Shown here: positions 9,801-51,943 of the stretch, piece after piece
How positions within the stretch are numbered: the stretch's first letter is position 1
How the letters are laid out: every line of letters begins with the position of its first letter
Assembly (NCBI GenBank): GCA_964460435.1
Contig: CAYWRH010000002.1
Location: forward strand, 15,500 to 79,499
Reading direction: 5' to 3'
Length of the DNA stretch: 64,000 nucleotides
Source: an uncultured Desulfatiglans sp.
GTDB lineage: Bacteria; Desulfobacterota; DSM-4660; Desulfatiglandales; HGW-15
Position numbers and translations under genes: made by a program
The notes under the pieces: model-generated
What the model was told of the DNA's origin: nothing
Databases searched by the model: none
Seen by the model: the letters and a program-made list of their open reading frames with translations, nothing else

Positions 9801-10088
9801 TTTGTTAGCATCATACAAAGACCTGCTCTGGTCATTGGCTACATTTCTGAGTTCGTGGAGGGCCTTGCCTATAAGGTTTTCGCTGTAATACTTACGGTTA
9901 AGATATTCTCTCAGAATATCTTCTTCAATGTTGCTGTTCTCATCACGCTCTTTCCAGTTTCCGAGATAATTATATCCCAGTTCTTCATTAAGTAGCAGGA
10001 TTACCCTGTTTTGCGTTTCTCTCTCTTGTTTGCCGAGGTTTGATAATGGTGAATGGTGAGTTGTGAATGGTGAATTAGTTTTTATCAT
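6897..10088 (-). CDS. hsdR: Type I restriction endonuclease subunit R
   Basis: 1063 aa. Helicase motif I (HTQGSGKSLTMV) and DEAH-type motif II (VFVDECHRTQ) are present. The N-terminal GKQERETQNRV...SNIEE block is typical of this family. The first ~15 codons lie inside a GTGAATGG repeat arm. Confidence 0.95.
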   Translation of the reverse strand: MIKTNSPFTTHHSPLSNLGKQERETQNRVILLLNEELGYNYLGNWKERDENSNIEEDILREYLNRKYYSENLIGKALHELRNVANDQSRSLYDANKDLYSMLRYGVDVLPDIGQNKKTVWLIDWEHPLENDFSIAEEVTIRGFHKKRPDIVIYVNGIALGVLELKRSTVSISEGIRQNLDNQKHIFIKPFFNTIQFIMAGNDVEGLKYGAVGTKEKYFLKWKEVNEEFNRDYPYLLNLTKSIRDRASKYDYPLDKNIVELLNKERFIELIHDFIVYDRGEKKLARPNQYFGIKAAQDFVKRKEGGIIWHTQGSGKSLTMVWLTRWLREHNPDARVLIITDRDELDEQIEKVFKGVNEKIYRTISGKDLLNRLNDNSPLLMCSLIHKFGGKEEVDDRDVDAYLEELRNNIPSNFKAKGDLYVFVDECHRTQTGKLHKAMKQFLPDALFIGFTGTPLLKSDKQTSLETFGRYIHTYKFDEAVNDKVVLDLRYEARDIEQKITSAERIDEWFDLKTRGLSDFARTELKQKWGTLKKVFSSKSRLEKIVLDIMLDMARKERLQNGRGNAILVSDSIYNACRYYDLFQSAGLKECAIVTSFVPSHRDIKLEESGEGYTERLQRFEIYQKMLADYFNESPETAINKVEQFELEVKKRFVEEPAQMKLLIVVNKLLTGFDAPPATYLYLDKKLRDHGLFQAVCRVNRLDGDDKEYGYIIDYMDLFRSLEAAFKDYTSEVFGGYEKTDIDGLLKDRLQKGKERLDEALEAIKALCEAVDPPKDTISNIRYFCGKDIENPDELKDTEPRRVSLYKNTISLIRAYANIADEMKEAGYSDREAEQIKNDVKHFENLRKEIQLASGDYVDLKQYEPAMRHLIDSYIGAEESRMLANFDDLSLVELLIERGKDAIKEFPANIRNNKDAMAEVIENNLRRLIIEESPTNPVYYEKMSVLLKELIRLRKEATIEYEKYLEEVIALSGKIKKPDTATDYPLSMDTKAKRALYDNLEKNEKIAEELDKRIMATKKDGWRDHFQKSKAVRHAISEALNRYGIKDDAEVSRIFDIVKNQKDY
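10041..10085. repeat. GTGAATGG-type octamer array (downstream arm of the degenerate 4HB cassette)
   Basis: The sequence ttgataatggtgaatggtgagttgtgaatggtgaattag matches 11624-11659. It overlaps hsdR codons 2-16. Confidence 0.8.
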
Positions 10089-10090
10089 TT

Positions 10091-10237
10091 TTATTCCTTT
10101 ATACAGATTGCCGTACCGCTTCTTAGCAATTGCTTACTTAAGATGTACTCCTTCTTTTCATCCTGCAAATATTTAAAGAGCTTAACCACTCGCAAGGCAA
10201 AGGCAAAACTTTTATCTTTAACAACATTTTCTCTCAT
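10091..10237 (-). pseudogene. internally deleted four-helix-bundle (23S rRNA IVS-type) gene remnant
   Basis: It keeps ~44 N-terminal codons (MRENVVKDKSFAFALRVVKLFKYLQDEKKEYILSKQLLRSGTAI) that align with the intact copy at 11881-12022. It then jumps to the last ~20 nt of that gene (tagtttttatcatttttat). About 190 bp are missing. The frame ends at TAA 10091-10093, 2 nt before the hsdR ATG. Confidence 0.65.
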
Positions 10238-10270
10238 GCCATTCACCCTTTACCATTCACAATTCAGAAT
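10238..10270. repeat. CCATTCAC-type octamer array (upstream arm of the degenerate cassette)
   Basis: ccattcaccctttaccattcacaattc is identical to 12024-12050. Confidence 0.8.
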
Positions 10271-10273
10271 TAA

Positions 10274-11623
10274 TTAAAGAATCTCCCAATGACCTCCCTT
10301 TTTAGGGCCTTTATAAGCTATCTTTCCTTCCTTCTGTAATCTGGACGCAGCTTTTTCAACGGCTCTGATTGACTTCCCTATCTGTTCTGATATTTCTACA
10401 AGGGTGATATTCGGATTTTTTTCTATTTTATCCATTATTGCATCAGTGGTTTTTACCGTCGTTTTTACCGTCGTTTTTACCGTCGTTTCTACCGTCGTTT
10501 TAGTATCGACCTCTGAATCGGAAAAGTGGAATATCATCCATAAACCATTCGGTTCATATTCTATTTCAAATCTGGCAGTCCCTGATTCCAAGCATGCTTC
10601 GGATATTTTTTCAATTCCGCGGCCCCAGGCCTCTATCATTCCGGCGCGGAAGAACACGTCTGCTATATCAGGGTTAAAAGGCTGTGAAGAATGCTTTTTT
10701 ATAAGGGTATCAACTGTCCATCCTTCAGGCAAGGTTCCCGGATTCCATAGCATGACCTTGTTGTCATAAACGCTTATCTGGATAGGAATAGAACTCCCAT
10801 AATCCTTATGGGCTACCGCATTAAGAAGAGACTCCCGCAGGGCTTTTTCCGGAACCGGATAGGATTCTATTCGCTGGACACCCTTGTATGAAATCCTTGC
10901 ATGAAGATATTTTGTAAGTAGAATATCCATGGTTTTATCAACCTGAGTGAACAGGTTCCCATGAATCTCATCATGAAAGAGAAGGTCAGCATCACTCTTA
11001 AAAAATCCCACCTTAATAAACGACCCGGTTACATATTTTTCAGGATCAGGGTGAAATAGCAGGATAGACGCCCTTTTGAAGTATGTTTTCTCCTTGAGGT
11101 GAAGTTTATCCATCAGGGAACTATCAGAGTCATTCAATATCTCTGCTGGCAAACGCTTGCTTAACAGCGCCTTTTCTCTGAAGATACTTATTGTCTTTTT
11201 ATCAAAATCAGCAAGTTTAAGATTCGGCACAGGAACACCATCCCAGTGTCTGCCCTGTTTGCTGAGTAAAAACCGGTCAAGGGCAGCGCCTTTCAGCTCC
11301 TGTTTTGTGCTGCCGCTCCGGTAATGGTATTCGCCGCAATAGCTTACCGGGTAGGGGTAGGGAGCAACCACAATTTCAAGGTATTCCTTTTTCTTTTCCG
11401 ATTTCAGGTTTACATCAACCATAATTCCAAGGATGTCACGAACCTTATTCGGGATATCTTCAAGGAGTTTTTTGACATTGGATAATCCTACAACGTTACC
11501 ATTGTCATCTTTACCAATATAAAGAACCCCGCCTTCAGCATTTGCATAACCGCAAATCCATTTAAGGTAATCATCACGCCATGATGTCTTGAATTCTATA
11601 TTCTGGTTTTCTTTCATAAGCAT
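10274..11623 (-). CDS. AlbA_2 (Schlafen-like) domain protein with RecG-C-like/HATPase_c_4 region and C-terminal wHTH
   Basis: 449 aa. The N-terminus ENQNIEFKTSWRDDYLKWICGYANAEGGVLYIGKDDNGNVVGL fits the AlbA_2 pattern. The C-terminus (IEKNPNITLVEISEQIGKSIRAVEKAASRLQKEGKI) looks like a winged helix. Family call is from memory. Confidence 0.75.
   Translation of the reverse strand: MLMKENQNIEFKTSWRDDYLKWICGYANAEGGVLYIGKDDNGNVVGLSNVKKLLEDIPNKVRDILGIMVDVNLKSEKKKEYLEIVVAPYPYPVSYCGEYHYRSGSTKQELKGAALDRFLLSKQGRHWDGVPVPNLKLADFDKKTISIFREKALLSKRLPAEILNDSDSSLMDKLHLKEKTYFKRASILLFHPDPEKYVTGSFIKVGFFKSDADLLFHDEIHGNLFTQVDKTMDILLTKYLHARISYKGVQRIESYPVPEKALRESLLNAVAHKDYGSSIPIQISVYDNKVMLWNPGTLPEGWTVDTLIKKHSSQPFNPDIADVFFRAGMIEAWGRGIEKISEACLESGTARFEIEYEPNGLWMIFHFSDSEVDTKTTVETTVKTTVKTTVKTTDAIMDKIEKNPNITLVEISEQIGKSIRAVEKAASRLQKEGKIAYKGPKKGGHWEIL
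10449..10508. repeat. in-frame 12-nt tandem repeat (gtttttaccgtc x4 plus one degenerate unit)
   Basis: Units lie at 10449-60, 10461-72, 10473-84 and 10485-96 (one substitution), with a degenerate unit at 10497-508. They encode TTVETTVKTTVKTTVKTT in the linker before the wHTH. Confidence 0.9.
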
Positions 11624-12073
11624 TCCAATTGTGAATTGTGAGTGGTAAATGGTGAATTAGTTTTTATCATTTTTATCACCTTTTGCGGTAAGGATGATAG
11701 ATGCAAGTAATTTTTTTAGTTCAGTTATATCAGGGATTATTGAATTGTACTGCACTGTTTCTAGATATTCCGATTTATATAAAAGATCAAGCCAGTATTC
11801 GGTTTCGTTTGCTTCCTTTTGAGCGATCGCCATTTTGTGAATGAAATCGGCTTTGCTTTCCGCCTGTTCTGCCTCACGTATCAAAGCTCCGATTGCTGTG
11901 CCGCTTCGAAGTAGTTGCTTACCTATAACATATTCTTTCTTTTCATTCTGTAAGTACTGGAAAAGTTTAACGATCCGCAAAGCAAAGGCAAAACTTTTAT
12001 CTTTAACAACATTTTCCCTCATGCCATTCACCCTTTACCATTCACAATTCATCATTCACCCTTCACCATTACT
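11624..12073 (-). mobile_element. four-helix-bundle gene cassette bounded by inverted octamer arrays (IVS-like element)
   Basis: A GTGAATKG array (11624-11656) and a CCATTCAC array (12023-12073) are reverse complements and flank the ORF directly. A second, deleted copy and an ORF-less arm pair occur in the same island. Confidence 0.45.
11657..12022 (-). CDS. four helix bundle protein (23S rRNA intervening-sequence protein family)
   Basis: 121 aa from the ATG at 12022; the track extends to a GTG at 12031. MRENVVKDKSFAFALRIVKLFQYL...SGTAIGALIREAEQAESKADFIHKMAIAQKEANETEYWL is the typical family pattern. Confidence 0.85.
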   Translation of the reverse strand: MRENVVKDKSFAFALRIVKLFQYLQNEKKEYVIGKQLLRSGTAIGALIREAEQAESKADFIHKMAIAQKEANETEYWLDLLYKSEYLETVQYNSIIPDITELKKLLASIILTAKGDKNDKN

Positions 12074-13273
12074 TCAAATCAGTCTAACCTTCCCTGTCAG
12101 CAAAACCTGCATCATGCCCTGTTTTATCATTCGGTATTTATCCAGTTTTTTCTCAAGGGCTTCTATTTCGGCATCCATGTCAGAGAGAATTTGCGCGATT
12201 CGGGTTTGTTCCTCTTTTTCTTTTGGTAAATGGATTTTTATTTTATACATTTGAGATTTATTCAATTTTGCTCTGGTTCCACTTGCTAATAAATCTAAAA
12301 TATTTTTATGAACTAAAGAATAGTAAATGAAATTCTGATCAAATTGTGCTTTTGCTTTTAAAATGTGCGCATGATTATTTACCCAAAATTTACCTTTCAT
12401 TTTGTATGCTATCGGCCTTGTTGCATATTCATCAAAGTAACCACCATCTTCTGCAATTAGAATGACGTCATCATTTATTTTATAATCATTAAGATAATCT
12501 AAAATACCATTCGCACCACAATAGGGGTAATCACCTTGCATGGCTAGCCTTTGTGTTTCATTTAATGGCAACCTCAGATTGTCTAAACAATCAGTCATTT
12601 TTTCTAAGTTGATCCCTTCCCAGCTTCGCTTCGGTTTAAGCAACTCCTGCATAGCCCCCTGCTTGACGGCTCGCTTTTTTGCAATGAGTTTTTCCAATTG
12701 GGTAATGAGAGAATCGACATCATTTAAAGCAGTGGCTATGGCGGTCTGCTCGGCTTTTGTGGGGGGAAGAGGTATTTGAAACTTTCTTATTCTTGCAAGT
12801 GCTAATTTGGGTTGTGCACCTAATGTTTTTTCAGCTTCAATTTTATTTTGGATCAACCAAGACATTAAAACATAAAGTAAATAATCTCTAACGCAAGAAA
12901 TATTTGTAAGTCTATCTGCGTTCTCAGTAAGATTCGCACCATTTAATATAGGAGGGATTTTGCCCACTAATCCTAATGTTCCTGCGACAGAGATAAAAAT
13001 ATCATCATTAAAAATACAATAATTTTTAATTGAAGGATATACATCATTAGGTAAATATTTGATGTCATTTAAAGAAACACTTCCCATAGACATATCTGCA
13101 ACACGAATATAAAAATGATCTGTTTCTTTGTCTGTAAGTGATTTGCCTAATGGTAATCTTTTCCCACTTCTTACTTCTGAAACATCGTTGATAGCTAATA
13201 CTCTCCAATCATTTGGAATAATCCCAACTTCTGTTTCTTTGAACCCTTCCGGTATTTTTTTAAGATTTACCAT
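12074..13273 (-). CDS. hsdS: Type I restriction-modification specificity subunit S
   Basis: 399 aa. Two variable target-recognition regions are separated and followed by conserved helical spacers (IPLPPTKAEQTAIATAL..., LPKEKEEQTRIAQILSDMDAEIEALEKKL). Confidence 0.9.
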   Translation of the reverse strand: MVNLKKIPEGFKETEVGIIPNDWRVLAINDVSEVRSGKRLPLGKSLTDKETDHFYIRVADMSMGSVSLNDIKYLPNDVYPSIKNYCIFNDDIFISVAGTLGLVGKIPPILNGANLTENADRLTNISCVRDYLLYVLMSWLIQNKIEAEKTLGAQPKLALARIRKFQIPLPPTKAEQTAIATALNDVDSLITQLEKLIAKKRAVKQGAMQELLKPKRSWEGINLEKMTDCLDNLRLPLNETQRLAMQGDYPYCGANGILDYLNDYKINDDVILIAEDGGYFDEYATRPIAYKMKGKFWVNNHAHILKAKAQFDQNFIYYSLVHKNILDLLASGTRAKLNKSQMYKIKIHLPKEKEEQTRIAQILSDMDAEIEALEKKLDKYRMIKQGMMQVLLTGKVRLI

Positions 13274-13306
13274 TCAAGCTGCATCCATTTTAAAACAATA
13301 AACTGG

Positions 13307-13329
13307 ATTCCCCGATCAAGTCGGGGAAT
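13307..13329. repeat. REP-like hairpin attccccga-tcaag-tcggggaat
   Basis: A perfect 9-bp stem lies in the hsdM-hsdS spacer. It belongs to the short GC-rich palindrome class seen elsewhere in the window. Confidence 0.6.
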
Positions 13330-13360
13330 GACGTGGTGGTTGATATTGTCTTTTTATTAA

Positions 13361-15805
13361 TCAAAATGAAAACCCCATTTTAGCAAGATGCATTCTAACT
13401 TTGTCTTCAAGCTTACTGACCTCCTCCATTTGAGCAGGCAAAGGCGTTTCATACCGTTCCGCAAGCTCCTTAATACGCTGCGTGAGCCTGTGGCTGATAT
13501 TATCCATCTCTGTTTCAATTCTCTTTCCGATATTTTGCATCCACTTCTTTTCCACAACAATATGTTTTATCTCATCAATGGTCAGTTTCGGGTACTGAGC
13601 TATCACCTTCTTTTCAAGTTCAGCCTTTGCAATCCTTATTTTCTCCCTTGCCTTTTTTTCATCCTCCATGAGCCCTTTATACTTATGGAGCAGGTCATAC
13701 TCTTCAGCATTATCAGCACTCCTTTTACCCAGCTCCCTTATTGCCTTATCTAGGGAGACTTTGCTGATCTTCCCTTTGTCATCCACAGCGTTGCCAAGCA
13801 GACCTTCTTCGCCACTATGCTCTTCTCTAAACTCTTCCATGCTGGCAGTTAAGGATTCAACCTGTATTTCGAGATCATCTATGACCTTCTGCTCTTTTTC
13901 AAAATACTCCTGAATCATCAGGACAGGCGGTATAAGCCTTCCTTCCAGCCCTTCAATCCCCTGAACCTCTTTTACTATCTCCCTGTCGCCCTTTTTTGTC
14001 TTCTTTTCTACCCTGTTCACAATATTGCCTGCTGACCAGCCATCGGCTGCAAGCTCATAAAAATCATCCTGCATGGTCTCTGCCCAGTAATCCATAAGAT
14101 GCTGGTATATGGTGTATTTATCAATGAGCGGTTTATCTGTGTAATGCCCAAGCAGGCTTTCTGAAATTCTCTTTATCTCATGCTTTGGCTTTATTCCCTT
14201 TTTTAGCGCCATAAGATATATAGCGGTCTCTTGTTTCCAGCGTCTAAACACAGAGCTCATCTTTTTGGCAAATGCAATAAACTCAGGGTGTGAAAAGATC
14301 TCATCCCTTATTTTTGAATAGGGAATGGATAATTCAAGATAACCTTTCCTGCCATTTTTAAATAAATGTTTTTTTAAAGTGGGGTACACCTGCCAGTATT
14401 TTTCAAGGGCATCAATATCCCTTTGGGGTATGCCTCCCAATAAATGGGCCTCTATGTCCTGGAGATCTTCCTCCTCCTGACTATCGATATACCTTGGTAT
14501 ATTCAGGTTATAATCGTTTCTGGGGTCTGCGATTTCCTCGACAGGAATGATACGTGAATATTTGGGGATCTCAATGCGGCGGTTGAACGTATCCACAATC
14601 CTGTGTATATCCTGTTCCCTGAGCCGGTTTTTATTGCCATCCTTTATAAACCCCTTGCTGGCATCAATCATGAAGATATCTTTTCGCTCTGCGGCCTTTT
14701 CCTTGTCTATCACGACCAGACTTGCTGCAATGCCTGTCCCGTAAAACAGGTTGGGAGGAAGGCCTATGATACCCTTTATATAACCCTTCTGAATTATCTT
14801 CTTCCTGATCTGGGCCTCCGCATTGCCACGGAACAGCACGCCAAGGGGAAGAACAATACATGCCTTGCCCTTAGACTTTAGGGATTTTATCAGGTGAAGC
14901 AGGAATGCAAAGTCACCATTCTTTGCAGGCGGAACAGCATCATAACCTTCAAACCGCTTATAGATATCATTAACAGGATCAACTCCATTCATCCATGACT
15001 TATAGCTGAAGGGCGGATTTGAGACCGCATAATCAAACTGCTTTAGTTCTCCGGTAGTATCATTTTTAAACTCAGGGGCAGCAAGCGTATTTCCCTGTAC
15101 AATCTCTGCATCAGGGTTGTCATGGAGCCACATGTTCATAACTGCAAGCGCCCGGGTTGCATTGTCATTTTCCTGGCCATATATGGTTATTCCATAAGGG
15201 GCTTCATCAGCCGCCTTTAAAAGTAATGACCCTGAACCGCATGTGGGGTCATATATGGTTTCGGACTGGCTTTTGGAATTTTCGATCCCGATCACCTTTG
15301 CCATGACTCGGGAGACCTCGGCAGGGGTATAGAACTGCCCCTTGCTCTTGCCGCTTTCTGTGGCAAAGTGCCGCATGAGGTATTCATAGGCATCGCCAAG
15401 CAGGTCATCTCCCTCTGCCCTGTTGCCGCTGAAATCCAGCTCTTTCTTTTCAAAAATGGTTATGAGATTGGTAAGTTTGTCAACCTTGTCTTTGCCCTTG
15501 CCAAGTTTTTCATCATCATTAAAATCAGCAACTGTGATAACGCCGGTAAGCCCGTTTGCCTTTGCAAACTCGCCTATGATTTTATTGATCTGGTCGCCGA
15601 TATCGGATTTGCCTTTGTGTTTTACCATGTCGTAAAAACTTGCATTTGGAGGGATATCAATAAGAGGGTCTTTTTTGTCAGAGACATATTTCATGAAGAG
15701 CATAACCAGCACATAATCCTTGTACTGGCTGGCATCCATGCTGCCGCGGAGTTCATCACAACTTGCCCAGAGTGAACTGTATAATTCTGATTTTTTTATA
15801 GCCAT
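13361..15805 (-). CDS. hsdM: Type I restriction-modification DNA methyltransferase subunit M (long form)
   Basis: 814 aa. SAM-binding DPTCGSGSLL and catalytic NPPF (VSNPPFSYKSW) are present. A ~300-aa coiled-coil-rich C-terminal extension follows. Confidence 0.95.
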   Translation of the reverse strand: MAIKKSELYSSLWASCDELRGSMDASQYKDYVLVMLFMKYVSDKKDPLIDIPPNASFYDMVKHKGKSDIGDQINKIIGEFAKANGLTGVITVADFNDDEKLGKGKDKVDKLTNLITIFEKKELDFSGNRAEGDDLLGDAYEYLMRHFATESGKSKGQFYTPAEVSRVMAKVIGIENSKSQSETIYDPTCGSGSLLLKAADEAPYGITIYGQENDNATRALAVMNMWLHDNPDAEIVQGNTLAAPEFKNDTTGELKQFDYAVSNPPFSYKSWMNGVDPVNDIYKRFEGYDAVPPAKNGDFAFLLHLIKSLKSKGKACIVLPLGVLFRGNAEAQIRKKIIQKGYIKGIIGLPPNLFYGTGIAASLVVIDKEKAAERKDIFMIDASKGFIKDGNKNRLREQDIHRIVDTFNRRIEIPKYSRIIPVEEIADPRNDYNLNIPRYIDSQEEEDLQDIEAHLLGGIPQRDIDALEKYWQVYPTLKKHLFKNGRKGYLELSIPYSKIRDEIFSHPEFIAFAKKMSSVFRRWKQETAIYLMALKKGIKPKHEIKRISESLLGHYTDKPLIDKYTIYQHLMDYWAETMQDDFYELAADGWSAGNIVNRVEKKTKKGDREIVKEVQGIEGLEGRLIPPVLMIQEYFEKEQKVIDDLEIQVESLTASMEEFREEHSGEEGLLGNAVDDKGKISKVSLDKAIRELGKRSADNAEEYDLLHKYKGLMEDEKKAREKIRIAKAELEKKVIAQYPKLTIDEIKHIVVEKKWMQNIGKRIETEMDNISHRLTQRIKELAERYETPLPAQMEEVSKLEDKVRMHLAKMGFSF

Positions 15806-43270: not shown

Positions 43271-45865
43271 CTATCTCAATACCACACTGTTACTGATGCC
43301 AAGATTTGTCAGCTCCGTGCTCAGTTCATCTGCCCCGGCCTTTGTAAGAAATGCGCCTACAAGGAGATTATCGTAATTTTCATCCGAAATAATATATGGT
43401 GAGAAATCATTTTGTTTCAGGATATTTATCATGCCCAGAAGGGCCTCTTTGTCAGTAAAACTCCCTGTATATACAGCATAGGCGGTCTTTTTTATCTCGC
43501 CATCCTTTATGGCCTTTTCATTGATAAAGGCCTCTGCGCCCTCTTTATCAGCAAACTCGCCTGAATAGACCCTGTACCATATCCCCTTTTCACCAAGATT
43601 TACCTTTACCCAGAAGGCGTCGATACCTGCCTTTGAATACTTATCAAGTGCACTCCTTGCCTGAGCAGTACTGTCAAATGACCCAAGGTAAACAGAATAT
43701 GGGTATCTGCCCTCCTGATAAACAAGCCCTGCCTCTGTCTCAGCGGGCGAAGGGGGTTCAGGGGCAATCACCTTTTCATTAGGTTTTTCCTCCTGCACAT
43801 TTGAGGCAGGAAGCTCTGGCTCCCGGCGCTTTACTTCGGCTCTATCCGGCTTTTGAGGTTTAAACACCGCATCTCTTTCACTGCTATTCACAACCTCCTT
43901 AATCTCGGGCCTTCCGGGAAAGATGGCATCATACTTCCAATACAATACGGCAATAATAATGATAATGGCAACAAGGGATATAAGCCCCCTTAAAAAGCCT
44001 TTCTTTTTATCAGGTGCATGAACTTCACTGCCGCCTGTTTGAGCCGCCTCATATTTTTCTCTGAGCGCATGCGGGATAAGGCCGGGCCTGACACGGTTAA
44101 GGACTATGCCCATGATATTGCTGCTTACCCGCGAAAGCTGCGCAAGGGTACGTTTAATGGCTCGCACAGAGACCTGTTCAGGGTTATATACTACAAATGT
44201 GCCATCTGCCTTTGCAGCCAGGATGGCAGCATCTGAGCTGGAAAGCAGGGGGGAAGAATCAAGGATTATAACATCATAGAAATTTTTTACCGTATCAAGA
44301 AACTCTGCAAACCCTTTTATACCAAGAAGTTCACCCTGTTTATCTGGCAGCGCCCCGCTTGTAATGATATTGAGTCTATCCAGGCCCGGCGTGGAGATAA
44401 GCTGGTCAAAGGTCATACCGCCCATAATCATATCTGTGACTGTCTTTACTGTCTCTTTCCATTTATAAGCTCCAAGCAGTATATCTGTCAGGCCGGGTGA
44501 TTCTTCAAGGTAAACCCTCCTGGAAAGATCAGGGTTTATAAGGTCTACCCCCACAAGAAGCGTCCTGAGGCCTGCCTGTGCAAGGCTTATTGCAAGGTTT
44601 ACAGATACCATTGTTCTGCCTTCGCCAGGGTAGCTGCCTGTTACCGCTATGGTCTTTATCTTCCCCCCTTCGCAGGCAGCCTGTATATTTGCCCTTAAGC
44701 CCCTGAAGCTCTCGGAAATAATTGTCCTGGGTTCAAGATGTGTAATAAGTGAAATGGATTTTTCAGATGATGCTCCTGCCCCTATCCGCCTGCTGCTCAC
44801 GGACGGAAAATCCTTTGGGTCTATGGCAGGGATTATCCCTATAACCCCAGTTTTCAGCTCCTTTTCCAGCTTATCAAGGAAGGCGTAAGAGTGGCCTATA
44901 TATTCAATTATTATGGTCAGGATCAGCCCGAGGACAATACCAGCTATAAGCCCTGTCAGCAGGATTTTCAGATAATCAGGTTTATTGAATGGCCGGAGGG
45001 GGCGCAGAGCCGGGCTTACAACCCTTGCATCATCCGGGTTTTCCGCCTTTCTTATCATGGCCTCCTGCCTCTTTTCCTCTAAAAAGGAGGCTATATTCCT
45101 TAACGATTCGACCTCCATCTTAAGCCGGTCAAATTCTATCTTTTTATCCATATGGAGGTCTATGTTCTCATTTACCTTTTCCAGTTCCTTTCCTATGGCG
45201 GCATCATTTTTACCACTCTTCCCCTCTATCTCATTTTTCTTCGAAAGCAGCGCCTCACCCTCAAGATCAATAGAGATTAGCCTGTTTTCCCTCATAAACC
45301 CTTCAAGCTCTTCCTCTTTAGCCTTAAGTTTATCGCCTGTGGTCTGCTGCTCTTCAATTATATGGGCAATAACCTCATCAAGCCTTTTATCATGGGCTTC
45401 CCTGTAGGATGCAATGAATGTAGAGGAGACTGTTTCTGCGATTCTAAAGGCCTTCTCGGGGTCTTTGTCCAGCACCTTTATGCGGAGGATATCTGTTTTG
45501 CCTTCCCTTTCAGTGTAAATTTTTGATCTTAAATCCTCAATAACCATCTGGTCTGCTGGTTTATCAGAATCGATCAAGGAGAGTTGTAAGGCAACCCTTT
45601 TAATAAAATCATGGCTCTGTATGATTACCTGCTGTGTCTCTATATTATCAGAAGGTGCAGAAAGAAGTCTGTTAATAAAACCGTCAGTGGCGCGGGCCTC
45701 ATCAATCTTTATGCTGCATGATGAAACATATACAGGCGTCAGGCCATTCCATGCTGCATATATAGCGCTAAAGAGCATGCAGGCTGCTATCACAGAGACA
45801 ATTCTGGCCCATCTTTTTTCAGCAACCATGAGGAATGCTGACGATTTGAATCGGTTGAAGATCAA
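43271..45865 (-). CDS. Wzz/PCP-type chain-length-determinant fused to a BY-kinase-like P-loop domain (Walker A K-to-R), third TM helix and two C-terminal SPOR domains
   Basis: 864 aa. TM1 spans ~aa 21-40, followed by a coiled-coil periplasmic region, then TM2 at ~aa 300-322. The CpsD/MinD-like domain has TGSYPGEGRT (R417, codon AGA at 44615-44617) and Walker B DVIILDSSP. TM3 spans ~aa 627-645. SPOR-like repeats are YSVYLGSFDSTAQARSALDKY...WYRVYSGEF and YAVYTGSFTDKEALLGM...LLVGAFLTKAGADEL. Confidence 0.8.
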   Translation of the reverse strand: MIFNRFKSSAFLMVAEKRWARIVSVIAACMLFSAIYAAWNGLTPVYVSSCSIKIDEARATDGFINRLLSAPSDNIETQQVIIQSHDFIKRVALQLSLIDSDKPADQMVIEDLRSKIYTEREGKTDILRIKVLDKDPEKAFRIAETVSSTFIASYREAHDKRLDEVIAHIIEEQQTTGDKLKAKEEELEGFMRENRLISIDLEGEALLSKKNEIEGKSGKNDAAIGKELEKVNENIDLHMDKKIEFDRLKMEVESLRNIASFLEEKRQEAMIRKAENPDDARVVSPALRPLRPFNKPDYLKILLTGLIAGIVLGLILTIIIEYIGHSYAFLDKLEKELKTGVIGIIPAIDPKDFPSVSSRRIGAGASSEKSISLITHLEPRTIISESFRGLRANIQAACEGGKIKTIAVTGSYPGEGRTMVSVNLAISLAQAGLRTLLVGVDLINPDLSRRVYLEESPGLTDILLGAYKWKETVKTVTDMIMGGMTFDQLISTPGLDRLNIITSGALPDKQGELLGIKGFAEFLDTVKNFYDVIILDSSPLLSSSDAAILAAKADGTFVVYNPEQVSVRAIKRTLAQLSRVSSNIMGIVLNRVRPGLIPHALREKYEAAQTGGSEVHAPDKKKGFLRGLISLVAIIIIIAVLYWKYDAIFPGRPEIKEVVNSSERDAVFKPQKPDRAEVKRREPELPASNVQEEKPNEKVIAPEPPSPAETEAGLVYQEGRYPYSVYLGSFDSTAQARSALDKYSKAGIDAFWVKVNLGEKGIWYRVYSGEFADKEGAEAFINEKAIKDGEIKKTAYAVYTGSFTDKEALLGMINILKQNDFSPYIISDENYDNLLVGAFLTKAGADELSTELTNLGISNSVVLR

Positions 45866-46932
45866 TTGGCCTCCTTGGTTGCCTTTGTTTCAGGCTGAAT
45901 GCATTTTTCAATATGAAGCGGTGGATTTGCCAAAAGGTCTATATAAAATCCCTCTTCCTTTTTTCGGCCTTCAGCGTCATAGAGTATCTCAAGCACAGGG
46001 CTCAGGGGGTGCCTCCAGTTGACAGAGATGACCCGCCCGATAAAACCATTATTGAGTCTCACGTGGGAGTTGACCGGGAAAATGGAGACCTCTTTCAGAA
46101 ATGCCTTTAAAGGCTTAACAGGAAAAAGCCCTCTCCCTGTTTCAGCTATCTGCCTCACTGCCTCATGGGGCAAATAAATATCTCTGTATGGCCTTTTAGC
46201 GATCATTGCACAATAGGTGTCTGCAATCGCAATTATGGATGCAAGTTCAGGGATACTGTCTCCCTTTATGCCACGTGGATAACCTGAGCCATTTGCCCTC
46301 TCATGGATGCATCTGGCAGCTTCAGCAAGCCAGGTGTATCTATCACCCATGGCAAGCAGGATATTGTAGCCTGTTTCAGGATGCCTTCTGATTATGGCAA
46401 TATCCTCATCAGACAATTTTTCAGTGCTGAAGATGATATCTTCAGGGATCATGTACATGCCCACGTTTTCAAGCATGGCAGCAAGGCCAAGCCTCATCAT
46501 CATCTTCATGTCATAGTTCATGGCCTTGCCTATCTTAAGTGCGGCAAAGGTGACATTGACTGTGTGGGAGGCAAGGTCATATGAATCCTTGACCCTGGAG
46601 ATGGCATAATCATAGATCCCCTCAACAATCCCCTTTTCCAGCACCATATGGAGATCTGAAAGCAGAGGGGCAGGGCTTATGGTCATATTGCCCTTTATGA
46701 TAGCAGCAATTTCGTTTGCCCTTTCCATAATGGCGATAAAATATCTCTCTGCCTCAGCGCCCTCAATTTTTTTCCGGGGGGGCTCTTTTATGACCTGGGA
46801 TACAATATTTACAGGTGTAAAAAGTGATGAATCGCTGAGCCGGAAGCCCTCCTCCTGTTTTGGAGGGGCAGGCTGCCTTTTGTCATTATCCTTTTTATCC
46901 CTGAGCCTGATTATATCAGAAAAGCGCACCAT
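45862..46932 (-). CDS. HD-GYP domain protein with degenerate metal-binding motif (HD replaced by EN)
   Basis: 356 aa. The alignable core is HTVNV...AAMLENVGM...RRHPETGY...IHERANGSGYPRG...IADTYCAM. E155-N156 (GAAAAC, 46465-46470) occupy the HD position, while GYP is retained. Confidence 0.8.
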   Translation of the reverse strand: MVRFSDIIRLRDKKDNDKRQPAPPKQEEGFRLSDSSLFTPVNIVSQVIKEPPRKKIEGAEAERYFIAIMERANEIAAIIKGNMTISPAPLLSDLHMVLEKGIVEGIYDYAISRVKDSYDLASHTVNVTFAALKIGKAMNYDMKMMMRLGLAAMLENVGMYMIPEDIIFSTEKLSDEDIAIIRRHPETGYNILLAMGDRYTWLAEAARCIHERANGSGYPRGIKGDSIPELASIIAIADTYCAMIAKRPYRDIYLPHEAVRQIAETGRGLFPVKPLKAFLKEVSIFPVNSHVRLNNGFIGRVISVNWRHPLSPVLEILYDAEGRKKEEGFYIDLLANPPLHIEKCIQPETKATKEAN

Positions 46933-47716
46933 CGCTGATTATCTTCTCCACCAGTTTTTTGCTGACATTTTCCTGTTTTGTGCCTGACCCCACCAGAAGG
47001 GATAAATCGCACAGGTTATTGATCTTTCTGGGTACCCCGCCTGTATATTCATATATCCTTTCCACTGCATCATCAGAAAACAGGTTGCACCTTCCTCCCG
47101 CCTTTTCCTGCCTGAATATAATATACCGGGCAGTCTCTTCAAGGTTAAAGGGTGTAAGATGGTATTTTATGGCGATCCTCTGGTCAAGCTGCTCTATCTC
47201 TTTAACCTTCTTTATCAGCTCCGGCTGGCCAATAAGGATAATTGTCATGAGAAACCTGTTGTTAAGCTGGAAATTTAACAGCAGCCGTATCTCTTCAAAG
47301 GATGCCTCATTAAGTATCTGGGCCTCGTCAACAATAAGTAGGGTCTCCTTTCCGGCCTCAAGGTTTGCGAGCATCCTTTCATTGAGCGCCCTCAGGCATT
47401 TTACCTTTGTGTCAGGGATCTCCTTTATGCCGAACTGGTACAGTATCTCCTGCAAAAATTCAAGGGATTCAAGCCTGGGGTTAACGATTATCCCTATGTC
47501 ATATTTTTCTACGGGGAGTTCCCTGACAAAAACCATTGAAAGGGTGGTCTTGCCGCAGCCGATCTCGCCAGAGAGCATGGCGCTCCCCTTTCTCATCCGG
47601 GCGGCATAGATAAGACGGGTCAGCCCCTCTTCATGGCCATTAGAGAGGTAGTAAAAGTCCGGGTCAGGGACACTTTCAAATGGGAACCGGTCAAATTTCC
47701 AGTAATTCAGGTACAT
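46916..47716 (-). CDS. ExeA/MshM-like AAA ATPase (secretion-ATPase family resembling TIGR03015)
   Basis: 266 aa. The N-terminus fits the family (FPFESVPDPDFYYLSNGHEEGL). Walker A GEIGCGKTT, Walker B LLIVDEAQ and LIGQPEL are present. A 17-nt overlap links it to the next gene. Confidence 0.85.
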   Translation of the reverse strand: MYLNYWKFDRFPFESVPDPDFYYLSNGHEEGLTRLIYAARMRKGSAMLSGEIGCGKTTLSMVFVRELPVEKYDIGIIVNPRLESLEFLQEILYQFGIKEIPDTKVKCLRALNERMLANLEAGKETLLIVDEAQILNEASFEEIRLLLNFQLNNRFLMTIILIGQPELIKKVKEIEQLDQRIAIKYHLTPFNLEETARYIIFRQEKAGGRCNLFSDDAVERIYEYTGGVPRKINNLCDLSLLVGSGTKQENVSKKLVEKIISDGALF

Positions 47717-47903: not shown

Positions 47904-48704
47904 TTGATGAAACCTGTCCCATTTTATGACCCCAAAAACAAAAAAGTTCCGATGAAGGTGGCAGCCTTTATGTCAGGATCAGGCAGCAATATCAGGATGC
48001 TCTTAAAAAGAGAAAGGGAGCTGATTCTGGCCAGAGGAAACTCCCCTTTCCATGTTGTATTCATATACAGTGACAGGTCGGATGGCGCATGCCAGGGTGA
48101 AAGGATCGCTCTTGAATACGGACTCCCATACTTTAGCTTTGATATCCGCAGGTTTCACACCATAGCGGGTTTAAACCGCACCACACTTACCTCTGACGGA
48201 CTTGAGGCGAGAAAAAAATATGACAGTGTCGCTGCAAATCTTGTGGCTGCATTTGATATTGATCTTATTGCCCTGGGCGGCTATATGAGCGTTACCACAC
48301 TTAGGGGCTGCGTCAATGTTCACCCGGCAGACCTCTCTATTCTAACCCCTGATGGCAAAAGGAGATACACAGGAGATCATGCTGTGGCAGATGCCATACT
48401 TGCAGGAGAAAGATATATCAGGGCATCCACCCTCTGGACAGACCAGGGTGTGGATACAGGCCCCCTGCTCATGGTTTCAGGGCCTGTTGAGGTAAAGCTC
48501 CCTGAATCTCTGGAGTTCCTTAAGAAAAACCCGGAGCTGTTAAAGCAGACTGTTTCAAGACACCAGGAGCTGCTGAAAGAACAGGGGGACTGGATAATAT
48601 TCCCCCGTACAATAGAGATGATAGCAGAGGGCAGGTTTGCCATGGATGAGAAAAACAGGGTATATGTGGATGGAAGGCCTGTGCCCGAGGGGTATCGGGA
48701 TTAA
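47904..48704 (+). CDS. formyltransferase-domain protein (PurN paralogue with C-terminal extension)
   Basis: 266 aa with MSGSGSNIRMLL, NVHPADLS (N/H catalytic pair) and VDTGPLL (Asp). It is ~60 aa longer than a typical PurN. Confidence 0.75.
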   Translation: MMKPVPFYDPKNKKVPMKVAAFMSGSGSNIRMLLKRERELILARGNSPFHVVFIYSDRSDGACQGERIALEYGLPYFSFDIRRFHTIAGLNRTTLTSDGLEARKKYDSVAANLVAAFDIDLIALGGYMSVTTLRGCVNVHPADLSILTPDGKRRYTGDHAVADAILAGERYIRASTLWTDQGVDTGPLLMVSGPVEVKLPESLEFLKKNPELLKQTVSRHQELLKEQGDWIIFPRTIEMIAEGRFAMDEKNRVYVDGRPVPEGYRD

Positions 48705-49793: not shown

Positions 49794-51197
49794 CTAGAAG
49801 CTGTAAGTAACCTTGGCGGCGTACATCTCCCAGTCTTTTTCAAAGGTATGTTTATTATCCATGCCTGTGTTTTCAGACAGAGGAAGCCCTGCAACGCCCT
49901 CAATATGGTGGCCTTCCAATTTTACTGACCAGTACTGGTTAATGTCAAAACGGGCAGTCAGACACATATCATTGTTATATGCCCTGTACACCGGGTCAAG
50001 CGGTTGAAACAAATCTACAGCGGCTTTGGCGCCATCACGATCGTTCCTGTTTCCGTAGTTCTCAGAGTAGTAACCGCCCAGCTCGAACCAGTCGGTAAAA
50101 CGGTAGGTTGCCCCAACATACCAGCCGGCAGGCTTCCTGTATATGGGTGTTGATGGGTTATATACACCCGCCCATTCTGTCTGGCCCAGATAGGCAAAGG
50201 TCTGGTCAAAGGAATTGGCCATATCCGGGTATACACCCTGTGTATTGATTGTCAGTTCACGATCAGACCACATATACTCTGCAACCACCATAAGGTTATT
50301 CCATGTATATTCCGCAGAAACAACATAGTTTTCTGTTTTAACATCAGTAAAGGCATTAAAGGCATACTCACTGTAAAGTGGCATGCCGGTTTCAGGATCA
50401 ATTACAGGTATGCCGGTAACAGGGTCCATTTCCATAAACATATAGCTGAAAATCCCTGTCCCTGCAGGATATGCGCCATATGATACAAGGTCCATTGTAG
50501 CAACCTGTGCTGAGCCTCCAACCCTGAGGCCGTTTAGGGGTGTATCCCATGTAAGGCTCACTGCATATTTCTTGTCAACCTTGATATCCTGGTTCTGCAT
50601 ATAAGGATCAAATGTATTAATACCCATAAGTGACTGGGCAAGAGACTCATTGGCATCTATATTCTGGGTACCGATCATGGCCTGGTAAGAGAGCCCTCCA
50701 AACCGGCCAAGACGTGCATTGCCGTATACACCTACACCCATCAAAGAAAGGGCTGCATCGCGTTCGATCTCAGGGTATACGCTCTGTGGCAGGAAGATCC
50801 AGTTTCTAAGCATATCCACATCGCGGGTCTCATTGTAAAGACCGTGCGGTGTCTTGATCTTGCCAACACGCACACCGAGCCAGTCTTTCCAGCGGTAGTC
50901 ACCATAGGCCCAGTCCACTGTAATTTCGTTATTCCCGTAGTTGCCCAGGTCTCTTGAAAAGAGCTGTACACCGACACGCATATTTTCGGTAAGTTCTTTG
51001 CCGAAGTTAATTCCGATCTCGTTGAATTCAAATGAGCCCTCTGAGGTCTCCCCCATAAAGTTATTGTCTGTTGTGGTTAAATAGCCCTGTGATATAAAAC
51101 CATTAATTTCAATGCCCCCAACCTCCGCAGCGCCTGCACAGGTAAAACCTGATAATATTGATATAAATAATAAAGAAAAAATATATTTTAATTTCAT
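49794..51197 (-). CDS. outer-membrane beta-barrel porin-like protein
   Basis: ATG 51197 is preceded by GGAGGA. Signal peptide is MKLKYIFSLLFISILSGFTCAGA. Alternating aromatic/Gly-rich beta-strand pattern runs throughout, ending in the C-terminal ...KVTYSF. Confidence 0.65.
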   Translation of the reverse strand: MKLKYIFSLLFISILSGFTCAGAAEVGGIEINGFISQGYLTTTDNNFMGETSEGSFEFNEIGINFGKELTENMRVGVQLFSRDLGNYGNNEITVDWAYGDYRWKDWLGVRVGKIKTPHGLYNETRDVDMLRNWIFLPQSVYPEIERDAALSLMGVGVYGNARLGRFGGLSYQAMIGTQNIDANESLAQSLMGINTFDPYMQNQDIKVDKKYAVSLTWDTPLNGLRVGGSAQVATMDLVSYGAYPAGTGIFSYMFMEMDPVTGIPVIDPETGMPLYSEYAFNAFTDVKTENYVVSAEYTWNNLMVVAEYMWSDRELTINTQGVYPDMANSFDQTFAYLGQTEWAGVYNPSTPIYRKPAGWYVGATYRFTDWFELGGYYSENYGNRNDRDGAKAAVDLFQPLDPVYRAYNNDMCLTARFDINQYWSVKLEGHHIEGVAGLPLSENTGMDNKHTFEKDWEMYAAKVTYSF

Positions 51198-51248
51198 GAT
51201 ATCCTCCAATCTATTTTAGTCCGCATTAATATTTATGAGCCCGGTTCA

Positions 51249-51692
51249 CTATTTAACACTCAGGGTCTTGACTGAACCTGTATCTGCGCCGGATGAAACA
51301 AAACCTATTGAGCCCTTGTTCTCTTTGATAAATTTCAGCATCTCCTCATCAGATTTCAGCATGGGTGGCATCTCACCCTTTCCGGAAAAGACCTGGCTTC
51401 GCCAGTGACGTATATATCTGGTATTTGTGTAGTACATGTAATCCCTGAGGAATATCTTGTCGGTCGGGTCAAGCTGTAAAAAGGCAAATTTTATCTTGGT
51501 TCCATCTTCCCAGGTGGTCTGCTGCCCAAGAAAGATATTCTGAATTGCTTCCTTTGACAGAGTGGTCACTGGAAGGTCTTTGTTTCCAATAACTATTGCA
51601 TCTGAAGCAAAGAGATTGGCTCCATTAAAAGCAAGAAAAACCAGTAACAAAGTAATTATGAGCTTGATTCTTGATTTAAAACGATCTTTCAT
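51249..51692 (-). CDS. small periplasmic PstS/PBP-like domain protein
   Basis: ATG 51692 (MKDRFKSRIKL...) is preceded by GGAGGA and followed by a signal peptide. NIFLGQQTTWEDGTKI and GSIGFVSSG resemble phosphate-binding-protein-like motifs. Confidence 0.6.
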   Translation of the reverse strand: MKDRFKSRIKLIITLLLVFLAFNGANLFASDAIVIGNKDLPVTTLSKEAIQNIFLGQQTTWEDGTKIKFAFLQLDPTDKIFLRDYMYYTNTRYIRHWRSQVFSGKGEMPPMLKSDEEMLKFIKENKGSIGFVSSGADTGSVKTLSVK

Positions 51693-51943
51693 TTTCTCAT
51701 CCTCCATTTTAGCTGTAATAAATTCAGCCATATTGATCTTATTATAAAGGACCCGGGATTCACCGGGCCGCATCAGGGTGACAATCAGGGATGAGAGGTC
51801 ACAGAATACAAATGACCTTTATGAATGAGGCACACTATTAGCTTTCTATGAATCAGGCGGTAAGACTAGTATGGATATAGAAGTCTCCTTTGCCTGGGCA
51901 ATTTATTTACCTTTATATGCTTTATTTGGGTAAAACCGGGTTG

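Follow-up and report, generated by a model that had tools for sequence, protein, structure and literature searches.

A three-gene locus of an uncultured Desulfatiglans species as a probable reduced form of an exopolysaccharide assembly cluster

Wzx/Wzy-dependent export of capsules and exopolysaccharides (EPS) is thought to be regulated mainly by cycles of Wzc tyrosine phosphorylation. A protein related to Wzc is encoded in a three-gene locus of an uncultured Desulfatiglans sp., which we analyzed within a 64-kb stretch of contig CAYWRH010000002.1 (positions 15,500 to 79,499). This whole stretch is called the window, and all coordinates refer to it. The three genes encode an ExeA/GspA/MshM-type AAA+ ATPase (A), a soluble protein with a degenerate HD-GYP domain (B), and a Wzc-like polysaccharide co-polymerase (PCP) that ends in two SPOR domains (C). 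The trio is probably the retained inner-membrane and cytoplasmic core of a cluster for Wzx/Wzy-type EPS assembly and export, one found widely in Thermodesulfobacteriota.

The closest described relatives of C are the PCP-2a bacterial tyrosine (BY) kinases, such as E. coli Wzc (7NHR) and S. aureus CapAB. Like C, they have two transmembrane (TM) helices around a periplasmic PCP domain, followed by a P-loop kinase fold. The relatives of C are also Wzc-like in that they sit between wza and wzy and carry intact Walker A, A' and B motifs and a Tyr cluster. Unlike Wzc, C of the window has Arg for the Walker A Lys, Ile for the Walker A' Arg, and no Tyr cluster. It also lacks an equivalent of the motif-2 jellyroll, and the tip of its periplasmic hairpin is deleted. 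Instead, C has a third TM helix (TM3), a linker and two periplasmic SPOR domains, and no wza or wzy is adjacent to it. A second group consists of the BY-pseudokinase PCP-2 systems, namely EpsV-EcpK of M. xanthus, HfsA-HfsB of C. crescentus and the fused SMc01795 of S. meliloti (Blöcher et al. 2025, PMC12004946). As in these systems (PMC12004946), the kinase-like domain of C lacks catalytic residues and a Tyr tail, is attached to a PCP, and may serve as the scaffold that has been proposed for them. However, EcpK lacks all Walker motifs, whereas C keeps Walker B and most of the P-loop, and its degeneration is recent and clade-specific. The systems of this group still work with Wza and Wzy, and SPOR domains, ExeA-like ATPases and HD-GYP partners are absent from them.

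Among non-enzymes, B is most similar to DvhD of Desulfovibrio vulgaris (9RBZ; PMC13090378), an HD-GYP protein with SQ in place of HD and MN in place of HH, which binds cyclic di-GMP (c-di-GMP) metal-free and does not hydrolyze it. Mutagenesis showed that M646, R650, Y652 and R653 of its canonical site matter (PMC13090378). Neither protein has the HD dyad or the first His of HH any longer, both keep the GYP motif and the M...RxYR contacts, and DvhD is the best match to B among non-enzymes in both sequence profile and fold. The two differ at individual positions, with EN in B versus SQ in DvhD, and H210 kept in B versus Asn in DvhD. They also differ in architecture, since DvhD is a membrane receptor of the dCache-TM-PAS-HD-GYP type controlling a LapG-like protease, whereas B is a soluble stand-alone protein. 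B has its own N-terminal motifs and a C-terminal beta domain, and its gene is coupled to that of an AAA+ ATPase within an EPS cluster.

A resembles ExeA/GspA, MshM and the TIGR03015 proteins, which are AAA_22 ATPases with GxxGxGKT and DEAQ motifs. In ExeA, the ATPase, a TM segment and a peptidoglycan-binding domain are combined in one protein. Unlike ExeA, A has neither a TM segment nor the PF01471 domain, and the SPOR domains, carried by C here and by B in other lineages, would provide the binding to peptidoglycan. No secretin or GspB is found in the window, unlike the ExeA/GspA-ExeB/GspB pairs. By analogy, A together with a TM and peptidoglycan-binding tail could be regarded as the ExeA/GspA architecture in pieces.

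The five-gene cluster and its three-gene derivative

A, B and C are three intact, overlapping genes on the minus strand, and their coordinates are exactly as the original prediction gave them, including overlaps of 17 and 4 nt and a position between bioB and a formyltransferase-like gene (Table 1). The trio is flanked by bioA-bioF-bioD-bioB on one side and by a divergent Formyl_trans_N gene on the other. The study covered the whole window, in which every open reading frame (ORF) of at least 150 aa was annotated, and flanking gene calls were taken from the matching 282.7-kb metagenome contig. Among the annotated ORFs of the window, there were no genes for glycosyltransferases, Wza, Wzx/Wzy, secretins, pili or exosortases. 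The window likewise holds no GspB and no PEP-CTERM protein. A tblastn search of the window with the Wza, Wzy, Wzx, WecA, GT4, AsnB-like and aminotransferase representatives of related loci gave no match. The earlier statement that no EPS, secretin or pilus gene lies nearby thus holds for all 64 kb.

Relatives were collected by a profile scan with one genome per species, which yielded 516 relatives, and the best 80 loci were analyzed by tblastn and ORF clustering. Related loci and C homologues are given by label (L0xx and P0xxx, respectively; WIN is the window itself). The analyzed loci are mostly from metagenome-assembled genomes (MAGs) of Thermodesulfobacteriota, with a few from Nitrospinae, Nitrospirota, Methylomirabilota and Latescibacterota. 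A adjoins B in 66 of the 80 loci, and a C homologue lies downstream in 57, in agreement with the treatment of the triad as a unit in the original prediction. In 49 loci, the gap between B and C holds a gene of about 390 aa (F3) for a Wza-type exporter (Poly_export and SLBB; TIGR03027-like). A gene of about 470 aa (F4) for a Wzy_C membrane protein follows C in 34 loci. The usual arrangement in relatives is A-B-Wza-C-Wzy. The association A-B(-Wza)-C is not a matter of chance, since 57 of the 80 independent loci have it and at least 35 of them share the very same 17-nt A/B overlap.

The chromosomal context links the five-gene cluster to the trio. The loci L011-L013, L015 and L058 have the order formyltransferase< A> B> Wza> C> Wzy> bioB< bioD< bioF< bioA<, which is the context of the window, and the formyltransferase/bioBDFA context is common to five-gene and reduced loci. 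In the distant loci L050, L053, L071, L072, L078, L081 and L059, the cluster lies directly beside other EPS genes. These encode a WecA-like initiating transferase, GT4 glycosyltransferases, a sugar aminotransferase, a deacetylase, a TIGR03108-like amidotransferase and a Wzx flippase. Both Wza and Wzy are missing only from the window and its closest relatives (L004-L009 and L047, labeled Desulfatiglans or Desulfatiglandales) and, independently, from L029. In a neighbor-joining tree of A and B (no bootstrap), the reduced loci form one clade nested among five-gene lineages, and the three-gene state is therefore derived. Judged from gene order and phylogeny, the trio is a lineage-specific reduction of the five-gene cluster at the same chromosomal site. 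The idea of an orphan, self-standing and undescribed system put forward in the original prediction had to be given up, as the trio is a reduced form of the A-B-Wza-C-Wzy cluster, which in distant relatives stands within full EPS loci. The ORFs of the trio are full length and intact in at least seven genomes of the reduced clade, with an identity of 49-79% for B. No cultured host was found among the close homologues of A, B and C, all of which come from MAGs, single-amplified genomes or metagenomes.

Some single MAGs carry two or three paralogous A-B loci, as seen for L035/L039/L057 (JASFIT01), L032/L042/L060 (JASFEQ01), L025/L049 and L014/L043. Some of these paralogous loci are accompanied by Wza, C and Wzy and some are not. 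The ATPase/EN-GYP pair may serve several polysaccharide systems per cell.

Catalytic motifs and remodeling of the three proteins

Profile searches agree with the domains assigned in the original prediction (AAA_22, HD_5, two SPOR and AAA_31/CbiA). The other families that it named, Wzz, GNVR and TIGR03015/03007/03018, did give matches, all of them below their cut-offs. A matches AAA_22 (Pfam) with 71.8 bits. The closest specific model is TIGR03015, 'PEP-CTERM-associated ATPase', to which A aligns end to end (residues 1-262 to model positions 1-265 of 269) with 230.5 bits, below the cut-off of 324.5. The Walker motifs of A are intact and no peptidoglycan-binding domain (PF01471) was found in it, as had been stated before from the sequence, and it has no TM segment. 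Within the A family, GK[ST] is kept in 65 of 68 members and DEAQ or DEAH in 60 of 68. Nearly all close homologues are exactly 266 aa long and carry automatic names of the GspA/ExeA family. The identity of A is 94-96% among genomes whose bio genes are 81-90% identical.

The automatic GspA/ExeA annotation of A, its best NCBIfam match to TIGR03015, and the presence of a peptidoglycan-binding domain in the ensemble, as in ExeA, could be taken to mean that the trio helps to assemble secretins or pili, as ExeAB/GspAB or MshM do, or that it belongs to a PEP-CTERM/XrtA sorting system. This is very improbable, since no secretin, pilus or exosortase gene was found in the window or recognized among the annotated neighbors of the related loci, and the conserved partners are instead Wza, Wzc and Wzy. 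PEP-CTERM/XrtA membership was rejected on the TIGR03015 score, on TIGR03018 (108.9 versus 230.65) and TIGR03007 (54.2 versus 278.85), and on the lack of an exosortase in the window. A role as an assembly factor for type II secretion or MSHA pili was also rejected, since secretin and pilus genes are absent from the window.

In L007 (9218-10014), which is from a long-read MAG, gene A is split into ORFs of 96 and 157 aa, and a sequencing frameshift is likelier than a pseudogene.

B is recognized by HD_5 of Pfam with 92.6 bits, and 496 homologues of about 350 aa were found at E<1e-5. Its AlphaFold (AF2) model has a confidence score (pLDDT) of 77 overall and above 90 in the core. The model shows a disordered N-terminus, a confident HD-GYP core (57-282) and a small C-terminal beta domain (283-345). 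The N-terminus is disordered in the model, yet it contains the conserved motifs MVRFSDII and FRLSDS. The active site was compared with that of PmGH (4MCW), using the metal ligands E185, H189, H221, D222, H250, H276, H277 and D305 together with K225. In B, E155-N156 stand at H221/D222, M159 at K225 and I209 at H276. In PmGH, H221A, D222A, K225A and H276A each abolish activity. The conclusion of the original prediction that the HD-GYP domain is degenerate is thus borne out at positions essential in PmGH. The equivalents of H189, H250, H277 and D305 of PmGH are retained together with the GYP motif, in which G217, Y218 and P219 are invariant. The HD dyad, the full set of metal ligands and the K225 equivalent of an HD-GYP phosphodiesterase are not present together in B. 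Because E155 is at least 90% conserved and N156 is invariant in 116 aligned homologues, the EN substitution that gives the 'EN-GYP' protein its name is a trait of the family and not decay. Distant SPOR-fused forms of B, such as that of L071, have HE at this site.

The features shared with DvhD point to another function. The top fold match of B is c-di-GMP-bound DvhD (9rbz), which is also among its best profile matches. In the profile alignment to 9rbz, M243, R247, Y249 and R250 of B correspond to the DvhD c-di-GMP contacts M646, R650, Y652 and R653. Each of the four is at least 90% conserved, so that B retains the contacts of a DvhD-like non-catalytic receptor. B also has RxxR at the RxxK position, as DvhD does. 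We infer from these alignments that B is a non-catalytic cyclic-dinucleotide receptor, and the c-di-GMP-sensing role suggested by the original prediction becomes plausible through the match of M243/R247/Y249/R250 to the DvhD contacts. It is improbable that B is instead an active phosphodiesterase for c-di-GMP, cGAMP or pGpG that uses Glu and Asn for His and Asp, and that the operon degrades the signal instead of sensing it. H123, H184, H210, E211 and D238 are retained, E155 could ligate a metal, and the near-invariance of E155 and the invariance of N156 suggest a specific role. However, the four positions essential in PmGH (H221, D222, K225 and H276) are replaced, and DvhD, where HD and HH are lost in an analogous way, needs no metal to bind c-di-GMP and does not hydrolyze it. 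A PilZ-like c-di-GMP site in the beta domain of B was considered and rejected. The LNNGSIGR of relatives is off the D/NxSxxG register (by eye), and its Ser is replaced by Phe in the window.

C is recognized by TIGR01007 (135 bits, above the cut-off of 108) and by AAA_31/CbiA; the Pfam Wzz and GNVR matches (17.9 and 18.8 bits) are both below threshold. The AlphaFold model of C has a pLDDT of 74, and full-length Wzc is its top structural match in Foldseek (E 1e-26). C therefore has the Wzc fold and the two TM helices around a periplasmic PCP domain that are expected of a BY-kinase. Its kinase-like domain superposes on CapAB with a TM-score of 0.88. Among the BY-kinase motifs, Walker B is present, and the Walker A Lys, the Walker A' motif and the Tyr cluster are missing, with one Tyr in the 35 aa that follow the kinase domain in the window. 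The first Asp of Walker A' is Gly, which is common in the family, but the change of Arg to Ile is clade-specific. A kinase fold that is attached to a PCP and lacks catalytic residues and a Tyr tail is the hallmark of the BY-pseudokinase PCP-2 proteins. The SPOR domains score 65.1 bits in two stretches (cut-off 21), and both repeats are modeled with a pLDDT of about 90.

Comparison of 53 C homologues shows in which loci these features were lost. The Walker A Lys is present in 50 of the 53 and is replaced only in WIN and L004 (Arg) and in L006 (Ser), and D[LM]R[KN] of Walker A' is kept almost everywhere in the family. All loci with Wza keep the Walker A Lys and D[LM]RK, and they have 4-7 Tyr in a KYYKYYSYYGEE-type tail just before TM3 of C, versus 0-2 Tyr in the reduced clade and L029. 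The degenerate kinase that the original prediction took as a hallmark of the system is thus real in the window, where the loss of the Walker A Lys, the Walker A' Arg and the Tyr cluster makes two of the three proteins degenerate, but it does not characterize the family. On the aligned sequences, kinase degeneracy is restricted to the clade without Wza and Wzy.

The periplasmic domain was remodeled as well. The distance between TM1 and TM2 is 262 aa in the window and 262-280 aa in the reduced clade, versus 359-371 aa in every other member. In the family alignment, 95-100 aa are missing from C of the reduced clade, including the conserved block FYS...YQ..N..L.EL.LKRD.LL..YT..HPEV. The deletion site is exactly the tip of the hairpin in the AF2 model and, by alignment, falls in the motif-3 helical region of E. 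coli Wzc (residues 268-402). Motif 3 of Wzc has been proposed to contact Wza, and its deletion abolishes capsule production but leaves the octamer and kinase activity intact (Yang et al.). The notion that the PCP of the window is a natural delta-motif-3 Wzc was softened, since about 100 aa of the tip are missing in comparison with its own family, but the remaining helical region is similar in length to that of E. coli Wzc. The distribution of these features implies that Wza and Wzy, along with the hairpin tip and the Tyr cluster, were lost first, in the whole reduced clade, and that the catalytic Lys and Arg followed in the innermost subclade.

Divergence is uneven along the locus. WIN and L047 are 83% identical in A, 79% in the formyltransferase and 79% in the SPOR part of C, but only 51% in B, 36% in the PCP part and 49% in the kinase-like part. 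Compared with L004, the flanks of WIN have diverged as far as from L047 (80% and 79%), but B is 79% and C 69% identical. The pattern resembles that of capsule loci, with conserved ends around a cassette, here B and the N-terminal two-thirds of C, that may have been exchanged or may evolve rapidly.

The position of the cell-wall-binding module also varies. In L070, L071, L075 and related loci, the two SPOR repeats are found behind a TM helix at the C-terminus of B, and C there ends right after TM3. In the C homologues P0192 and P0196, SH3_3 and SH3_4 stand in place of SPOR at the C-terminus. Since SPOR moves between C and a TM-anchored B, and SH3 can replace it, the domain architectures suggest that the module is shuffled within the cluster, that the proteins form one inner-membrane complex, and that the peptidoglycan anchor is the selected feature.

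The distant loci L070, L071, L075, L083 and L074 have the order B-A-Wza-C-Wzy, with a B of 514-715 aa. Where it was checked, the extension of B consists of a TM helix (L071, L075) and then SPOR repeats (L070, L071, L074, L075). Wza in these distant loci is fused to FG-GAP repeats (738 aa).

Table 1. Coordinates of the three genes, their overlaps and their predicted features in the window
Feature	Position	Strand	Basis
Gene A, ExeA/GspA/MshM-type AAA+ ATPase, cytoplasmic, 266 aa	46916..47716	-	
Gene B, soluble 'EN-GYP' protein, 356 aa	45862..46932	-	
Gene C, PCP-2a (Wzc-like) protein with putative pseudokinase domain, third TM helix and two SPOR domains, 864 aa	43271..45865	-	
A/B coding overlap, 17 nt, ATGGTGCGCTTTTCTGA	46916..46932	-	sequence
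B/C overlap, 4 nt (TTGA); Shine-Dalgarno AAGGAGG directly upstream	45862..45865	-	sequence
A Walker A, GEIGCGKT, residues 50-57, intact	47546..47569	-	sequence
A Walker B-like, LLIVDEAQ, residues 126-133, intact	47318..47341	-	sequence
B LENVGM, L154-M159, at HDxGK site (HD to EN, K to M)	46456..46473	-	alignments to PmGH, DvhD
B IHERANGSGYP, residues 209-219; first His of HHE lost, H210, E211 and GYP kept	46276..46308	-	
B IADTYCAMIAKRPYR, residues 236-250; D238 at metal-ligand position	46183..46227	-	profile alignment to 9rbz
C TM1, residues 19-41	45743..45811	-	hydropathy, AF2 helix
C periplasmic PCP domain, residues 42-297; alpha/beta base and one long helical hairpin (H136-216, H222-275)	44975..45742	-	AF2
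C hairpin tip, GKSGKNDAA, residues 215-223; clade-specific deletion site	45197..45223	-	family alignment; AF2 turn 217-221
C TM2, residues 298-324	44894..44974	-	hydropathy, AF2
C BY-kinase-like domain, cytoplasmic, residues 375-609, catalytically degenerate	44039..44743	-	alignment to CapB, Wzc
C Walker A, GSYPGEGRT, residues 410-418, Lys to Arg	44612..44638	-	alignment to CapB
C Walker A', LLVGVDLINP, residues 436-445, Arg of DxDxR to Ile	44531..44560	-	
C Walker B, VIILDSSP, residues 532-539, Asp retained	44249..44272	-	alignment to CapB
C post-kinase tail, LREKYEAAQ, residues 601-609, single Tyr versus 4-7 in relatives	44039..44065	-	
C TM3, residues 623-648, chain back to periplasm	43922..43999	-	hydropathy, AF2
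C Pro/Glu/Lys-rich periplasmic linker, residues 649-720, disordered (pLDDT about 30)	43706..43921	-	AF2
C two SPOR domains, residues 721-793 and 794-864	43274..43705	-	Pfam, AF2

Selective constraint and possible function

Constraint on the trio was estimated as the ratio of non-synonymous to synonymous substitution (dN/dS) for the window against L004, L005 and L006, at dS of 0.4-1.0. The values are 0.04-0.05 for A, 0.22-0.27 for B and 0.27-0.30 for the whole of C, compared with 0.10-0.19 for the neighboring bio, formyltransferase and F31 genes. Within C, the SPOR domains are the best-conserved part (0.14-0.19), followed by the kinase-like domain (0.29-0.35) and the linker (0.5-0.8). All three genes are under purifying selection and are maintained, not decaying. 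Comparable pairs of the five-gene clade give 0.04-0.11 for A, 0.12-0.31 for B, 0.15-0.35 for C, 0.09-0.42 for Wza and 0.06-0.19 for Wzy. Because the values of the trio lie within the range of these pairs, its constraint is normal for the cluster.

These values bear on the possibility that the trio has no function and is left over from a decayed EPS locus, as a relic bound for pseudogenization. Its partner genes are gone, the catalytic motifs of C are degenerate, and dN of B and C is raised in comparison with neighboring genes. Nevertheless, the ORFs are full length and intact in at least seven genomes of the clade, dN/dS (0.05-0.30) is far below 1 and within the range of intact clusters, and the coding overlaps and the ribosome-binding site are preserved. 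Furthermore, A is 94-96% identical where the bio genes are 81-90% identical. A relic is thus improbable.

On the reading that the trio is the retained core of an EPS cluster, C would assemble in the inner membrane into an oligomeric ring like that of Wzc, with its kinase-like domain as a scaffold that works without phosphorylation. Such a role has been proposed for the BY pseudokinases EcpK and HfsB. TM3 with the two SPOR domains would tether the ring to peptidoglycan. B, as a non-catalytic HD-GYP protein, would bind c-di-GMP in the manner of DvhD and act at the cytoplasmic face of C. A, the only component with intact catalytic motifs, would use ATP to assemble or remodel the complex under the control of B. 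The complex would most likely control a pathway for an envelope polysaccharide, with the polymerase and the outer-membrane exporter encoded at other sites of the genome. If the genome has no such genes, the output would be a new envelope function that is independent of export.

The latter case, which comes close to the idea of the original prediction, corresponds to an autonomous, repurposed module, a c-di-GMP-responsive and peptidoglycan-anchored (possibly septal) transmembrane complex for scaffolding or signaling that has no role in export. This seems unlikely, though it deserves serious consideration. It would account for the coordinated remodeling of C (loss of the hairpin tip, the Tyr cluster, and the Lys and Arg) with conservation of the ORFs, overlaps and SPOR domains, for the SPOR domains being the best-conserved part of C, for the persistence of the trio across a clade with saturated dS (WIN versus L007, L008 and L009), and for the absence of EPS genes from the window. 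Against it, the absence of Wza and Wzy covers only the 64 kb of the window and does not indicate a genome-wide loss. Since some MAGs carry both a complete and a reduced locus (e.g., L025, L049), action in trans is plausible. In addition, C retains the periplasmic base and hairpin of a PCP. A broader proposal, which we put forward only tentatively, is that the ExeA-like ATPase and the EN-GYP protein form an ATP-driven regulator of a kind not recognized before, which acts on Wzc-type co-polymerases and is gated by c-di-GMP. In the Desulfatiglans-like clade, it would then have been taken over, along with a kinase-dead PCP ring tethered to peptidoglycan, as a scaffold of the envelope or the division site that has no part in export.

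Several points weigh against the favored reading of a retained EPS core. In the reduced clade, non-synonymous change in B and C is 2.5-3.3 times that of the bio genes, versus about 1-1.2 times in five-gene loci, and this excess indicates some relaxation or a shift of function. The exchange of the Walker A Lys for Arg can still allow nucleotide binding, so that C is a pseudokinase by prediction. The remaining hairpin of C is about as long as the motif-3 region of E. coli Wzc, relative to which the long forms carry an insertion, and the shortened hairpin may still contact an outer-membrane polysaccharide export (OPX) protein. The interaction of A, B and C, c-di-GMP binding by B and ATPase activity of A together make up a working model derived from sequence. 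The absence of Wza, Wzy and Wzx applies to the 64 kb of the window, and copies elsewhere in the genome may act in trans. Finally, we know of no experimentally established role of ExeA-like ATPases in EPS loci.

Surrounding genes and significance

The rest of the window holds housekeeping genes and a type I restriction-modification island. The former include genes for AlaRS, RecA, BamD, BamA, Skp, LpxA/B/D/I, LolCDE-like proteins, LysRS, DnaK/GrpE and SAICAR synthase. The restriction-modification system (6181-15805) comprises hsdR (6897-10088), hsdS (12074-13273) and hsdM (13361-15805). The same region holds genes for a YgjP-like metallopeptidase (6181-6897) and a protein with Schlafen/AlbA_2, HATPase_c_4 and HTH domains (10274-11623). 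Its GC content is low (0.38-0.40), and it is probably a defense island. The trio itself was rejected as an anti-phage defense system, since PADLOC gave weak generic P-loop matches for A and none for B or C. Rfam at gathering thresholds found no RNA in the whole window, so that an upstream RNA regulator such as a c-di-GMP riboswitch was rejected, and promoter and terminator scans gave results at chance level.

The divergent 'formyltransferase' gene next to A (47904-48704, plus strand) has a weak PurN match of 49.5 bits against a cut-off of 150. It adjoins gene A in 24 loci, which may reflect a functional link, e.g., via N-formyl sugars, or mere synteny. Beyond it, a minus-strand gene (49794-51209) encodes a 471-aa protein with a signal peptide and the C-terminus ...TYSF, which has no Pfam or NCBIfam match and is probably an outer-membrane beta-barrel. 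An exported protein of 174 aa is encoded next to it (51249-51773, minus strand). ORFs of 470-473 aa near the trio in L005, L006 and L008 are similar in size to the 471-aa protein but do not cluster with it by sequence.

The locus does not amount to a wholly new kind of system, since all of its domains come from known families and its ancestry lies in a conventional EPS pathway. No description of the cluster was found in full-text searches of the literature on SPOR-fused Wzc, ExeA-like ATPases with PCPs, or degenerate HD-GYP proteins in EPS export, and the homologues of A, B and C have only automatic names in the databases. Three features appear to be undescribed. One is the conserved pairing of an ExeA-like ATPase with an EN-GYP protein within a Wza-Wzc-Wzy cluster, another is the addition of TM3 and a SPOR or SH3 anchor to the co-polymerase, and the third is the reduced, kinase-dead three-gene derivative.

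The translationally coupled pair of an AAA+ ATPase and a non-catalytic HD-GYP protein could be a direct c-di-GMP input to Wzc-type export. The reduced clade amounts to a natural deletion series. Exporter and polymerase, hairpin tip and Tyr cluster were lost in turn, and the catalytic Lys last of all, with the ATPase, the putative sensor and the scaffold core staying under selection. It could be used to dissect how the parts of the Wzc machine depend on each other. The proteins of the cluster are candidates for the control of the biofilm matrix in uncultured relatives of sulfate reducers.

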